Below are positions 43,749 to 55,718 of a DNA stretch of 58,460 nucleotides, piece by piece. Position 1 is the stretch's first letter, and the number at the start of each line of letters is the position of its first letter. The notes beneath the pieces are model-generated. The model did no database searches, was not told the DNA's origin, and saw nothing but the letters and a program-made list of their open reading frames with translations. The DNA lies in sequence record PP627280.1. The stretch is one strand, 5' to 3'. Made by a program: the position numbers and the translations under genes. The DNA is from Escherichia phage SHIN8.

Positions 43749-43787
43749 ATAATCTCCAAAAGTTGAATATAAAACACTTCATAAAGA

Positions 43788-43816
43788 ATTTTATATTGAA
43801 GTTCTGTTGATCTCAA
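43788..43816 (-). promoter_or_regulatory. candidate sigma70-type promoter (TTGAGA-17-TAAAAT)
   Basis: hexamers read on minus strand, just downstream of a terminator and ~40 nt upstream of the 43748 start. Confidence 0.3.
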
Positions 43817-43820
43817 GGAA

Positions 43821-43852
43821 CAAAAAAGCCCAGGCATAAGGATTCCTGGGCT
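43821..43852 (-). terminator. intrinsic terminator
   Basis: AGCCCAGG-10 nt loop-CCTGGGCT followed by TTTTTTG on minus strand. Confidence 0.55.
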
Positions 43853-43958
43853 CTCTTGATTGTCGGATAGCTTACTTTGACTGCCGTCTTCGTCTATCCT
43901 GGCCTACTTGTACAGCCTCGCCAAAGGCTGGTGACGGTTTGGTACATCTGGCGCCGTC

Positions 43959-44095
43959 GCGTTAAACATCGTTCACATCGTTCAGTAAGTTGCGGGTTTA
44001 CCCTGTCCGCTCCAGGAAGCCCAGCGAAAGTAGTTGCTGTAAGGAGGTACAGCTACCGCTTTCAAGGGCTTGAGTTAAGCATCGTTCACTAAGTT
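43959..44095. repeat. direct repeats of CATCGTTCA(C/G)(TAAGTT) in a ~300-bp non-coding region
   Basis: copies at 43967-43976, 43977-43991 and 44080-44095. Confidence 0.7.
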
Positions 44096-44164
44096 AATGT
44101 TGTTAAATTGTTAAACCTCGTTAACTGTGGTTATCTTAAAGGATGCAGTCTTGAATGGCAAGCT

Positions 44165-47523: not shown

Positions 47524-47739
47524 TTACTGAGAACTAACCATTGCACAACCGATGGCAGCAAATAAGTGCTTCTTAGTCTCGTTGATCACTTTCTCTGCAT
47601 CCAGATAGCTCTCATAATGTCCAAGGTAAATAATAGTCCCTGCAACCATGATATAAGCTGTGCGGTAATGCATGTAATGCCCAATGAACCATCCCTGCTC
47701 CCGAAGCTTATTTTGTCCAACTTCACTAAGTACCATCAT
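47524..47739 (-). CDS. hypothetical protein
   Basis: 71-aa ORF. Confidence 0.35.
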   Translation of the reverse strand: MMVLSEVGQNKLREQGWFIGHYMHYRTAYIMVAGTIIYLGHYESYLDAEKVINETKKHLFAAIGCAMVSSQ

Positions 47740-47939
47740 GACCTCCGACGCTTATCGCCTTGCATCTTTTCCAGGGCGGGCACTGCTAAGGAACGTTTGT
47801 AGATGTACTGGTTAGCGATTCTGATAGCGCCCGGGATGCTGTCACGTATGCGCGACATCTTAAACTTAGATATGCCATAACGGTCTTCAATTTCCGCCGC
47901 CGTTATGTAGTTCAAATCAAATTCCGATTCGTGATCCAT
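47736..47939 (-). CDS. helix-turn-helix DNA-binding protein (putative regulator)
   Basis: track ORF trimmed to ATG 47939 with GGAGGG RBS; YITAAEIEDRYGISKFKMSRIRDS HTH-like. Confidence 0.4.
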   Translation of the reverse strand: MDHESEFDLNYITAAEIEDRYGISKFKMSRIRDSIPGAIRIANQYIYKRSLAVPALEKMQGDKRRRS

Positions 47940-48733: not shown

Positions 48734-49401
48734 AAATCCTCCTAGTGAACTGGTAATGCTACTATAAAACAGCTATTAGCTATTTGCAAGAATTGTTTTA
48801 ATATAGTGCTTAGTGGCGTACATAGTGGGCAAAGCGTGTATAGTACGCCGTTACTGGCTTTGTAAAAGTTTGCCACTATAAACCACTATCCCACTATTCA
48901 CTAATTTTTTATTTTTACACAGAGCAAAGTTTATAAGTTTACGGTTTCCCCCTTATTACCCCGTTTTCAAACAAAGAATTAGTAGTAGTAGTGAAAACGT
49001 GTAAATGCCACTATCACTACTATACTATTAATTATCTGAAAAAAGTTGGGAGTATACCCCTATAAACTTATAAACTTTCAGTCAACTAACTAAAATAAAA
49101 CTAATTAAACTAATATTAATAATAACTATAAATATATATAAAATAAGGATTTATTATTATTGTATATAGTACCTATTGGTATTATGTGATGAGTTTATAG
49201 TCACTAAATAAACTCTATAAATTTTAATAAACCTGAACGGATGCAAATCAAAAACGAGAAGTCAAGTGCTTTTGAGGGAAATTTATTGAACTATTGTGAT
49301 CGGAAGGTATATCAAGCTATAATGCGCTTAATCGCGGGATATTGGAGGAGGACTTTATTGCGCGGTTAACCGGACCAGTAGGAGGGCTGGCCCGGAGTAG
49401 T
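48734..49401. repeat. AT-rich 668-bp non-coding region with repeated CTATAAA/CCACTAT motifs
   Basis: CTATAAA at ~48763, 48877, 49050, 49127, 49216 and inverted at 49194; CCACTAT x3 at 48872-48897; (TAG)4 at 48981-48992. Confidence 0.6.
48761..48789 (-). promoter_or_regulatory. candidate sigma70-type promoter (TTGCAA-17-TATAGT)
   Basis: hexamers on minus strand, -10 about 28 nt upstream of the 48733 ATG. Confidence 0.35.
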
Positions 49402-49778: not shown

Positions 49779-50393
49779 TTATGCGTCCAGTCCGTTGTAT
49801 TTGCGCCAGGCGTAGAACTGAATGGCGACTGTTGTCCCGTTGTAAGAAGGCATTGCAGCTTTCATTTCTTTCAGCTCCGGCGTGCGACCCAGTTCAGCTA
49901 AAAGTTTGTCGCCCATTGCCCACACTTCGGCGGTTTTTCCTTTCAGAGGCTTGCGAGCGCCATTTTTGAAATCACAGCGAGCAGCTTTTGCATCCTGTTT
50001 TGGCGCGGCAGCTTTTGGCTCTTCAATTTTGATTTCAGAAACCTGCGTGGCAGCTTTTGCGTGTTTCATATCTTTCTCTTCCTCCTGCTCCAGAGCTTCG
50101 AGGCAGCTTTTGACGATTTCCGGATTTACCATCGGGCGCAGTACCGAGACGCTGGCAGCTGGCGCGGCGGTCGGTGCCGGGACTTTCTGCTCCGGCAGCT
50201 GCGCTTTTTTATGGTCGCGCAGCACCTGAAGCACTTCCTTCTCGACGATGTAAAAACCGATCTCGTCCTGATGGATAAGCTGTTCGTGTGCGTCGCGTGC
50301 AACCTGGCCCCAGCGGGTCTTAAGGGCGCGGCGTGCATTCGTTTTCATGGTGTAACGCATTTTGTCCTGTTCGCGGTGAGTTACTTTAGACAT
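49779..50393 (-). CDS. hypothetical protein
   Basis: 204-aa ORF, Ala/Lys-rich middle. Confidence 0.4.
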   Translation of the reverse strand: MSKVTHREQDKMRYTMKTNARRALKTRWGQVARDAHEQLIHQDEIGFYIVEKEVLQVLRDHKKAQLPEQKVPAPTAAPAASVSVLRPMVNPEIVKSCLEALEQEEEKDMKHAKAATQVSEIKIEEPKAAAPKQDAKAARCDFKNGARKPLKGKTAEVWAMGDKLLAELGRTPELKEMKAAMPSYNGTTVAIQFYAWRKYNGLDA

Positions 50394-50483: not shown

Positions 50484-50708
50484 TTATTTAACCATTAAGG
50501 CCCATCTTTTATAGCCGTTCAGCTCCAGTCTATGACCGTGATCGTTGCAATAACGTTGGATATTATTAAAGTCGTTATCATTCATATCGCTAACATCAAT
50601 ATTAAAATAGTTGCGCTTTGCAGCTGTAACGTATTGGGACAATTGTATTGAGTACAGATGTTCAATGTTGTCGATAATAGCTTGCTGAACTTTAGTGATA
50701 GTAGCCAT
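50484..50708 (-). CDS. hypothetical protein
   Basis: 74-aa ORF. Confidence 0.4.
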   Translation of the reverse strand: MATITKVQQAIIDNIEHLYSIQLSQYVTAAKRNYFNIDVSDMNDNDFNNIQRYCNDHGHRLELNGYKRWALMVK

Positions 50709-51046
50709 GATGCAACCCTTTTTATGTGGTTAAGCAGTATTTCTTTGTTGAAGTAATAATAGCCTTGCATCGTGATATTGAATAGGCCAAAAGTGCTATT
50801 TTAGATCACTATTACATCTACAGCTTTGCAGTAACGCTACGCTAAAAATGCAAAGTCTTACGTTTGCAAAGAAAGTGGATTTTATGTACATCACTCTTAG
50901 TACGTATAACGTCTATTATGTTAAATAGCTAAGTTATTGATTTATGGTAAATCTTGTATCAATTCGGACGTTATAGGAGTCTAACGTATTGATTTATAAG
51001 GGTGTAAAATTTTGCTGTTTGTAGCGCATAAAAAGGAACAAACCGG

Positions 51047-51063
51047 GATGTCATAAAATGACA
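51047..51063. promoter_or_regulatory. candidate operator palindrome ATGTCAT-aaa-ATGACAT in divergent control region
   Basis: perfect 7-bp inverted repeat next to TATAAA-like elements between divergent gene blocks. Confidence 0.3.
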
Positions 51064-51168
51064 TGTGTTTTGTCAGTATAAATGCCACGTTTGGCCTAGA
51101 CATGGATCAAGTCATGTTGTACTATATAGTCAAAGGAAAGATAAAGCTGAAAGGCGGAGGAAAATAAA

Positions 51169-51318
51169 ATGAGAAAGTTTAAAGTCATGTACTACGGTAA
51201 CTACATTGGAGACGTTAAAGCTCCGAACCGTGCTGAGGCAGAAGGTTTCGTCCGCGCAGAGATGCAACTTGGAATCGCTGATTTTGCAGCCATTATCGAA
51301 CTAGTAGAGGTATTTTAA
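51169..51318 (+). CDS. small hypothetical protein (49 aa), not in ORF track
   Basis: ATG with GGAGGA RBS, first gene of the rightward block. Confidence 0.35.
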   Translation: MRKFKVMYYGNYIGDVKAPNRAEAEGFVRAEMQLGIADFAAIIELVEVF

Positions 51319-51460: not shown

Positions 51461-52025
51461 CGCACACAGCAGCACCACAGCGAGCTAATGTACATAGGTA
51501 ATGGTAATGCATTACCAACACACAACGAGCACGCTGTACCCCACAAAGCGGCGCTAATTTCAACACTCACAGGCTGTACGTTAACTCGTACGGCCTGCTC
51601 TGCTATATGCACGCCACATACGCAGCCAGCTCACAGTGAACATTAATATAATCACGAATGAAATGGATTCGTTTGGAAGAATAACAATTCTTGCAGTCAC
51701 AGACCGGTCCAATGAGCCGGCTCATAGACCCCACCTAGGATCATCAGGGTACTAATAATCACCCGAGGGCGCCTTATCCATCCTGATAGTAAGTCCACGC
51801 CTAAATCTCACCTGTCACATCCCTGTCCACCTACATCCATGACCCCACCTACCTTCTTTTTGAATATATTGCGCTCATCCTTTCTAAATATATGGATTTT
51901 GGTAGTAAATTCTGAGTCGTCAACGTATAATTCGTCTTGTAGCTGCTCCATAGCTATCATCTTTAAGCGGATGCAACCAATTTCTATCAGTTCACACCTG
52001 TTTTTAGAGCATCGAGGAGGTATTT

Positions 52026-55534: not shown

Positions 55535-55718
55535 GACCAAACTATACGCCGGATTGTTTTTATTTGCGACGTTGATGTTCGCTGGGCTTTATACCTATAC
55601 AGTAGTCGAACAACCTTCCACGGTTATCCGAATCTTTGCAAGTACAGGGCTTTGCATCTGTCTTATTCTATTTGTTTTATGCATTGTTATTATCCAAGAC
55701 CAAAGGAAAGTTAAATGA
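55533..55718 (+). CDS. small two-helix membrane protein
   Basis: 61 aa, two hydrophobic segments. Confidence 0.45.
   Translation: MTKLYAGLFLFATLMFAGLYTYTVVEQPSTVIRIFASTGLCICLILFVLCIVIIQDQRKVK

Follow-up and report, generated by a model that had tools for sequence, protein, structure and literature searches.

Divergent gap of the seuratvirus Escherichia phage SHIN8: two outward promoter modules, probably activator-dependent, around an exchangeable spacer

Class II promoters under MarA, SoxS, Rob or RamA control carry a forward activator site that overlaps the -35 position with its centre near -41, and they combine a canonical -10 hexamer with no recognisable -35 (PMC12052159; PMC8811837; PMC10268841). 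Here we describe two modules of this arrangement at the edges of a 460-bp non-coding gap (positions 50709-51168) in the genome of Escherichia phage SHIN8 (sequence record PP627280.1), whose 58,460 nucleotides, the whole stretch that was analysed, are called the window below. The gap is probably a divergent control region, composed of two outward-facing, sigma70-type, activator-dependent promoters, which we call PL (leftward) and PR (rightward), and of an accessory spacer module between them. The region is ordinary in kind; the promoter class and its binder are previously undescribed, and a search of the literature gave no relevant paper on transcription control in Queuovirinae phages.

Back-to-back promoters are known from Mu Pe/Pc (with an IHF site), phi29 A2b/A2c-A3 (with p4 and p6) and lambda PR/PRM, and the gap resembles these regions in having an AT-rich interval with IHF-like and inverted-repeat sites between its promoters. 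It differs in the lack of a repressor or lysogeny module and of a repeated operator over the core promoters, and in an interval of ~290 bp that is exchangeable between strains. By megablast and blastn the window is a Seuratvirus (Queuovirinae) genome that looks complete, with SLUR76/SLUR26, VogelGryff and Seurat as the nearest genomes. Its open reading frames lie on the plus strand from 1 to 20.3 kb, on the minus strand from 22.4 to 50.7 kb, and on the plus strand again from 51169 to the end. The gap (GC content 34%, compared with 44% genome-wide) is the sole point of gene divergence in the window, which confirms the junction of leftward and rightward blocks that a first-pass annotation had placed here.

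The edge elements and their promoters

The 13-mer CACNTTTGGCCTA occurs exactly twice in the 58,460 bp, once at each edge of the gap and pointing outward in both cases; its chance expectation is 0 and it was absent from 100 of 100 shuffles. It forms the core of the longest inverted repeat of the gap (50783-50801 with 51080-51098; 19 nt, 84%). The minus strand of PL reads AGCACTTTTGGCC-23 nt-TATTAT-tacttcA and the plus strand of PR reads GCCACGTTTGGCC-23 nt-TACTAT-atagtcA. With the -10 hexamer set at -12 to -7, the core of the element falls at -48 to -36 and the centre of the 17-mer that contains it at -41.

At PL (minus strand) this 17-mer, TAGCACTTTTGGCCTAT, spans 50782-50798 (predicted -49 to -33) and holds the core AGCAC-N4-GGCC at 50785-50797. 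It is followed by the -10 hexamer TATTAT (50756-50761), by a predicted start at A 50749 (TATTAT-tacttc-A), and by a predicted 5' leader of 41 nt (50709-50749) with TTAACCACA at 50726-50734, an AAAGGG Shine-Dalgarno sequence and the ATG at 50708. At PR (plus strand) the 17-mer TGCCACGTTTGGCCTAG at 51083-51099, likewise predicted at -49 to -33, holds the core GCCAC-N4-GGCC (51084-51096). The adjoining core promoter TAGACA-17 nt-TACTAT (51097-51132), with its -10 at 51120-51125 and a predicted start at A 51132, is the sole plus-strand match inside the gap in a consensus scan, and its leader carries GGAGG (51156-51160) ahead of the ATG at 51169.

Both -10 hexamers present A at position 2 and T at position 6 and lie upstream of a Shine-Dalgarno sequence and a first gene. 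A TTGACA-like hexamer 16-18 nt further upstream is missing. TATTCA at PL agrees with it at 3/6 positions and its place is not conserved among relatives; TAGACA at PR agrees at 5/6, in the window only. Because TATTCA is poor as a -35, PL scores a low 5.1 in the sigma70 weight matrix. Ranked among all sites of the genome, PR stands 103rd and PL 1233rd, and therefore the core promoters alone would be weak; the same matrix locates near-consensus sigma70 promoters in other gaps of the genome. The first-pass annotation had seen a divergent early control region here. The divergent control region is borne out by outward promoter modules at both edges, each with a -10, a CA start, a Shine-Dalgarno sequence and a first gene, and conserved across the genus; with such matrix ranks, and with near-consensus promoters elsewhere, the label "early" is unproven.

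Homologous loci were gathered from 16 GenBank phages, 2 IMG/VR contigs, 1 metagenome contig and 6 Logan contigs, where the identity of the neighbouring 204-aa protein to that of the window goes down to 66%. In the window and 24 related loci, [A/G][G/C]CAC-N4-GGCC stands 23 nt upstream of the -10 in every PL- and PR-type copy, and the hexamer found at that distance is TATTAT, TACTAT, GATACT or CATAAT. The exception to the 23 nt is one additional promoter of yong3, with 22 nt. The spacer itself, the "-35" position included, comes in ~10 unrelated versions, the non-conserved hexamers at that position being TATTCA, AAGATC, TAGATC, TAGACA, ACACAT and TAATCA. Despite this varying spacer CTATTAT is invariant in 14 genomes, and the same CA start context follows all compared PL and PR copies. 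The PL element is identical or nearly so in all Seuratvirus loci examined, and the PL module with its 41-nt leader is >93% identical in ~35 genomes, including those whose first leftward gene is not homologous. The PR core is kept in window-type and CAjan-type genomes; CAjan-type phages have a second box just 65 bp from the PL box, beyond which the sequence is a different one and PR is separate, with AT-rich DNA upstream of it. No homologue of the PL module was found in E. coli genomes.

A conserved asymmetric bipartite element that keeps a strict register to the -10 and stands in place of the -35 argues for a class II, activator-dependent architecture. In the mechanism that we favour, (T)AGCAC-N4-GGCC(TA) at -48 to -36, 23 nt upstream of a good -10, would replace the -35 hexamer, and a sequence-specific activator would bind it and recruit RNA polymerase, presumably with sigma70, in class II fashion, through contacts to sigma region 4, to the alpha C-terminal domain or to both. 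PL (predicted start ~50749, minus strand) would then drive the leftward replication and modification genes, and PR (predicted start ~51132, plus strand) the rightward block of small genes. The islands of the central module most likely bind architectural or regulatory proteins that would tune both promoters; the islands in question comprise a pair of IHF-like sites at a distance of 52 bp, a 17-bp palindrome that lies just upstream of the PR element together with a third half-site, and a long-range inverted repeat of 7 bp. The leftward block encodes an NrS-1-like primase-helicase, a ligase, a helicase, an RNase H and a dUTPase, together with FolE, QueD, QueC and QueE of the 7-deazaguanine pathway, while the rightward block encodes small proteins.

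Some observations weigh against this reading. Both start sites are predictions, and a box over the -35 position would suit a repressor just as well. Since many of the compared genomes are close relatives, they do not give independent counts. Many Seuratviruses have no central module, and therefore none of its motifs is essential to the genus. A box is also not always found before a good -10, as seen in a third box type of CAjan-type phages, P2, which lies 24 nt from a non-canonical TAYWCG.

P2 was located, in the numbering of our gathered loci, at L003 2165-2188, L009 2166-2189, L012 2167-2190, L014 13340-13363, L006 2149-2168, L023 2514-2530 and L024 2567-2584. Directly after its TAYWCG runs a GC-rich tract of 15-24 nt in perfect purine/pyrimidine alternation, which could adopt the Z-DNA form; the alternation is retained while the sequence varies. 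The longest alternating run in the window is 14 nt, and none lies in the gap.

Three further features of the leaders and first genes were noted. TTAACCACA (50726-50734, minus strand), which the PL leader carries directly upstream of its Shine-Dalgarno sequence, is an 8/9 match to the DnaA box TTATCCACA and is unchanged in 14/14 aligned genomes, including those with the other leader type. The first gene of the PL operon (50484-50708, minus strand, 74 aa) resembles PHROG 7673, "internal head protein" (E 6e-21), a label that is odd for that position, and its slot is filled by unrelated genes in other Seuratviruses. In WildeMaa and SLUR75 (L005 ~1930-2178; L016 ~1630-1878) a purine- and GC-rich leader of ~250 nt separates PR from its first gene; it might be a structured RNA, and it has no Rfam match.

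Candidates for the protein at the edge elements

The window boxes fit all published class II rules: orientation, overlap with the -35, centre, missing -35 and canonical -10. AGCAC-N4-GGCC is placed at -48 to -36 with GCAC promoter-distal, and the allowed centre ranges from about -36 to -55 (PMC12052159; PMC8811837). The fixed register to the -10, 23 nt, holds in all PL and PR copies. The 20-mer ATGCCACGTTTGGCCTAGAC at PR (51081-51100), compared with the E. coli mar marbox in reverse complement, agrees at 15/20 positions, 11 of them in one unbroken run, and the 17-mer of PL is identical to araI1 (TAGCATTTTTATCCATA) at 11/17. From the end of this 17-mer to the -10 the distance is 20 nt, equal to that of araI2 at pBAD. 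The mar sequence was verified in E. coli genomes, and the pBAD sequence was verified as well; the assignment of the araI1 and araI2 half-sites at pBAD follows the established AraC literature.

To judge by sequence, the likeness to the marbox and to araI is resemblance, not membership. The published marbox definition, GCAnnWWnTGnnAAA, allows at most 2 mismatches (PMC12052159), whereas the PL box has 3 and the PR box 4, with GG instead of TG and TAT or TAG instead of AAA; 2 mismatches are reached in relatives (STP-SP5, L021, L014 and P2). Matches to the marbox consensus occur in the window at chance density (297 observed vs 277 expected). Class II promoters of the MarA type, such as micF, lpxC P2 and lpxL P1, have in common with the phage boxes the asymmetric, GCAC-first forward site at -35, its centre at ~-41 and the canonical -10. 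They differ in the second half of the site, which in the phage box is an invariant GGCC rather than TGnnAAA, with variable bases at the AAA position; the specificity would thus be related to, yet distinct from, that of canonical MarA. They differ also in setting, since the window boxes sit in a lytic phage genome, where binding is putative. Compared with araI1 and araI2 at araBAD, the phage B-box is GGCCTA rather than TCCATA, no second half-site that is clear and complete stands 21 bp upstream (a conserved TAGATG at 22 nt is all that lies there), and no arabinose logic is expected. In a comparison by eye of consensus sequences, which is not a database test, none of the sigma54 -24/-12 elements, the CRP/FNR, LexA, PurR, OxyR, ArgR and Lrp sites, the PhoB pho box or the DnaA box fits the box or the palindrome of the central module; the one near match to any of them is TTAACCACA of the PL leader, at 8/9 to a DnaA box.

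No AraC-type helix-turn-helix was found in the phage open reading frames scanned with Pfam, and therefore a binder of AraC/XylS type would be a host protein. The best lead for the activator is a monomer with two helix-turn-helix motifs of this type, for example host Rob, MarA or SoxS. A more specific version of the activator reading would make the boxes marbox-like sites for one of these three and the promoters immediate-early and host-stress-responsive. We take it as possible rather than probable. It draws on the GCAC half-site common to box and marbox, on the forward orientation with the centre at ~-41 and no -35 hexamer, on the 15/20 identity at PR and on the relatives that reach the two-mismatch threshold; Rob, moreover, is constitutively abundant. 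The mismatches described above count against it, as do a GGCC that is both invariant and foreign to the marbox, the chance-level frequency of consensus matches, and a literature search in which no paper tying the marbox to phage promoters was found. Alternatively, the boxes may be operators of a phage protein, such as the conserved 204-aa winged-helix-like protein of the PL operon (49779-50393), which would either shut both promoters down, as autoregulation or early in infection, or switch on middle genes. This seems rather unlikely: the strict 23-nt register over unrelated spacers suits an activator or a contact with RNA polymerase, not a repressor; self-activation from a promoter without a -35 would pose a start-up problem; and the fold matches of the 204-aa protein are weak (Foldseek E >=0.8), with DNA binding putative.

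The sequence of the boxes bears also on base modification. In the related phage CAjan, preQ0 takes the place of G in the motifs GA and GGC, and the DNA resists HaeIII, which cuts at GGCC (PMC7544227). The GGCC of both boxes would thus be modified on both strands in virion DNA if modification of GGC follows CAjan. The 7-deazaguanine motifs at PL and PR are the invariant GGCC and the GA of TAGACA and of GATC. We consider it a rather remote speculation that a site for a host stress regulator of the Rob/MarA/SoxS kind has replaced the -35 and ties the launch of a strictly lytic phage to the antibiotic or oxidative stress state, with the difference between modified incoming and unmodified replicated DNA serving as a temporal switch. 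As a separate observation, GATC has only 2 sites in the gap, one 6 nt past the PL box (50804-50807) and one in the PR spacer (51105-51108), and it is retained, with a 1-nt shift, in the PR spacer of all PR variants.

A genus-wide and precisely defined promoter class, AGCAC-N4-GGCC, 23 nt and a -10, offers direct experimental handles. If a host stress regulator is used, the launch of the phage would be linked to host physiology, a matter of relevance to phage therapy combined with antibiotics. If hypermodification at GGCC matters, it would be one of the rare instances in which base modification in a phage acts in gene regulation and not just in defence evasion. If neither is true, the gap would be an ordinary divergent promoter region with an exchangeable spacer.

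The module between the elements

Between the two edge elements lies an AT-rich central module of ~286 bp. It is carried by ~8 genomes (the window, SLUR76/26, VogelGryff, Seurat, WildeMaa, SLUR75 and one metagenome contig) and is replaced by other modules elsewhere. The spacing and content between the boxes are exchanged between conserved boundaries in relatives, and the central module is therefore accessory and exchangeable. The functional core of the gap is the pair of edge promoters, and the motifs that the first-pass annotation had listed as control determinants belong to this accessory spacer; they are lacking or replaced in other genomes, and the truly conserved features are the two edge boxes, which it had not listed. 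Two subtypes of the module differ by 25-40% and yet have sharply conserved islands in common: the 50906-50932 block, copy 1 and parts of copy 2 of a direct repeat, ATGTCA-N5-TGACAT with TTGTCA, and the 7-bp inverted repeat. The most conserved of these is the 27-nt ATAACGTCTATTATGTTAAATAGCTAA at 50906-50932, which is 100% identical in 7 genomes while its flanks are ~60-75% identical. Scans of IMG/VR and metagenomes for further copies of the module gave one extra genome only, of subtype 1, and so the power to detect covariation is low.

Both copies of TATTGATTTAT that had been reported are present, at 50935-50945 and 50987-50997, and the window holds exactly these 2 (0.07 expected; 0/100 shuffles reach 2). 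They lie within a 17-nt direct repeat, 15/17 identical, whose copies are 52 bp apart. Both are read on the minus strand: copy 1, CTAAGTTATTGATTTAT (50929-50945), includes AATCAATAACTTA (50930-50942), which agrees with the IHF consensus, and copy 2, CTAACGTATTGATTTAT (50981-50997), includes AATCAATACGTTA (50982-50994), which does so too. The IHF consensus WATCAANNNNTTR has 3 matches in the whole window, 2 of which are these minus-strand repeats, and a tract of AAAATTTTA lies on the 5' side of site 2; both are putative IHF sites. The consensus at site 1 is kept in both subtypes, and that at site 2 is lost (TTGTT) in Seurat, WildeMaa and SLUR75.

The palindrome ATGTCAT-aaa-ATGACAT had been read as operator-like. 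It is present, one nucleotide from where it had been placed: ATGTCA-taaaa-TGACAT occupies 51048-51064 and, with a third half-site TTGTCA at 51070-51075, is predicted to cover -84 to -57 of PR. Perfect 7+7 inverted repeats with a loop of <=7 number 45 in the window vs 32.5 +/- 8 in shuffles, and since a stretch of 460 bp should hold ~0.35 of them, the palindrome has no significance by itself. ATGTCA-N5-TGACAT and TTGTCA are nevertheless retained in the diverged subtype 2, where loop and flanks differ, and this conservation favours a protein site. An upstream regulator site is a likelier reading of the palindrome than a classical operator: the motif occurs once in the window, stands at -84 to -68 of PR clear of the core promoter, and forms no lambda-like array. 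A lambda-like switch would use at least 2 copies of a 14-18-bp operator on the core promoters together with a repressor. For the latter, Pfam found no helix-turn-helix in the flanking open reading frames or in 47736-47939, and the sole candidate is the 204-aa protein, with its weak winged-helix-like domain. The protein at 47736-47939, which the first-pass annotation had proposed as a helix-turn-helix binder, gave no Pfam match, even with the cut-off relaxed to E<5, and none by sequence in the PDB; only 3 clusters of homologues exist. The reported TATAAA-like element lies at 51077-51082; it is not a -10 but the A/T-rich sequence that directly flanks the PR element on its upstream side.

TGCAAAG occurs 26 times in the window (13.3 expected), and 3 of these copies fall within 48 bp, at 50824-50830 on the minus strand and at 50849 and 50865 on the plus strand. 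The direct and inverted copies had thus been seen correctly, and their conservation is narrow: the inverted arms are confined to subtype 1 and absent from subtype 2, and the third copy is specific to the window. They are enclosed by a long-range inverted repeat of 7 bp, given for the window as ATCTACA (50816-50822) / AGTGGAT (50874-50880) and for the two subtypes together as ATCTAYA...TRTAGAT, which contains CTTTGCA/TGCAAAG/TGCAAAG (50824-50871) and a conserved GCTACG..AAAA. In the 7-bp helix 98% of cells pair across 7 genomes, with one compensatory change, C-G to T-A, in subtype 2. The fold of the window around the TGCAAAG arms reaches -18.3 kcal/mol (z -2.3), and its inner stems are not conserved in subtype 2. 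Another TGCAAAG pair with 16-nt spacing, at 55634/55650, lies inside the open reading frame of a small membrane protein and was set aside as coincidence. In the gap we found no intrinsic terminator (the stem of the palindrome is AT-rich and a T-run follows it only in the subtype of the window), and the weight matrix gave only low-scoring candidates for internal sigma70 promoters in the central module.

Other roles for the module were weighed against that of an accessory spacer between two promoters. A replication origin at the strand switch, activated by divergent transcription, would agree with the low GC content, with a cumulative GC-skew minimum near 49-52 kb, with two IHF-consensus sites and a 52-bp-spaced direct repeat, with a primase-helicase gene 3 kb away, and with arrays of TACCAGG repeats at the same place in CAjan-type and Nonagvirus genomes. 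We nonetheless regard it as improbable, because the module is present in ~8 genomes only, the minimal gaps of yong3, KS_S4 and slur01 are without any repeats, the direct repeat has 2 copies where iterons would number at least 3, and GC skew tracks gene orientation. A TACCAGG array is found nowhere in the window. A better candidate is the non-coding gap at 43749-44164, with three 16-nt iterons and 96-100% conservation in 34/34 Seuratviruses, which makes an origin in 50709-51168 unlikely. Comparably slight is the chance of a small non-coding RNA or a micro-protein encoded in the module. Folding of the minus strand of 50800-51095 is more stable than that of shuffled sequence (z -2.58), and the 7-bp helix with its compensatory change and the hairpin of the TGCAAAG arms point the same way; against these stand the plus-strand z of -0.28, the inner stems that subtype 2 does not conserve, the lack of a convincing internal promoter or terminator, and Rfam, which gave no match at gathering score in the window or the local region (best regional E 1.9) and none in 10 related loci. 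For a micro-protein, the open reading frames of the gap are <=40 aa, are without a Shine-Dalgarno sequence and are in frames that are not conserved.

Least probable of all, in our estimate, is an invertible or mobile cassette between the inverted boxes, similar to the fim switch with its inverted repeats and internal IHF sites, or a neutral mosaic junction there. The 19-nt, 84% inverted repeat does flank ~280 bp with two IHF-like sites, and the content between the boxes differs among phages, as in exchange at conserved boundaries. The module has the same orientation in 8/8 genomes that carry it, however, its conserved islands speak against neutrality, and no recombinase was seen in the open reading frames scanned with Pfam and PHROG. 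The inverted repeats at the edges of the gap are explained by two outward promoters of one class.

Related arrays and other non-coding gaps

The repeat arrays of the relatives are tandem units between the divergent promoters of CAjan-type phages (CAjan, GottfriedDienst, Dru_SM1, Greed and SRR25721715; L004, L009, L010, L013 and L021 among our loci, ~2190-2340) and of the Nonagvirus BRET (L017, 2100-2165). The units are GC-rich, ~28-40 nt long and strain-variable, with 0-5 copies and the core (A/T)ACCAGG(T/G)G; they could be iterons or repeated non-coding RNA.

Within the window, tRNA and tmRNA were searched for and none was detected. The gap at 43749-44164 is the best candidate of the window for a replication origin or control region. 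Its three direct 16-mers, GTTAAACATCGTTCAC at 43961, 44074 and 44110, come with CATCGTTCA sub-repeats, and in the same gap lie the two sigma70-like promoters that rank best in the leftward block (43816-43788 and 44161-44133). A further AT-rich non-coding gap of 525 bp, 48877-49401, contains many copies of CTATAAA(C/T) and a perfect 16-nt inverted repeat, AAAGTTTATAAGTTTA (48926/49063), and may hold a second promoter class or a structural element. On the other side of the divergent gap, after a 46-aa gene, the ~565 bp of 51461-52025 hold only implausible open reading frames, with a possible small leftward one at 51808-51960. GACCCCACCTA is found twice in this stretch (51727-51737 and 51841-51851), and TAGGTGGGGTC, the same sequence read on the other strand, is reminiscent of the ACCAGGTGGG units in CAjan-type phages.

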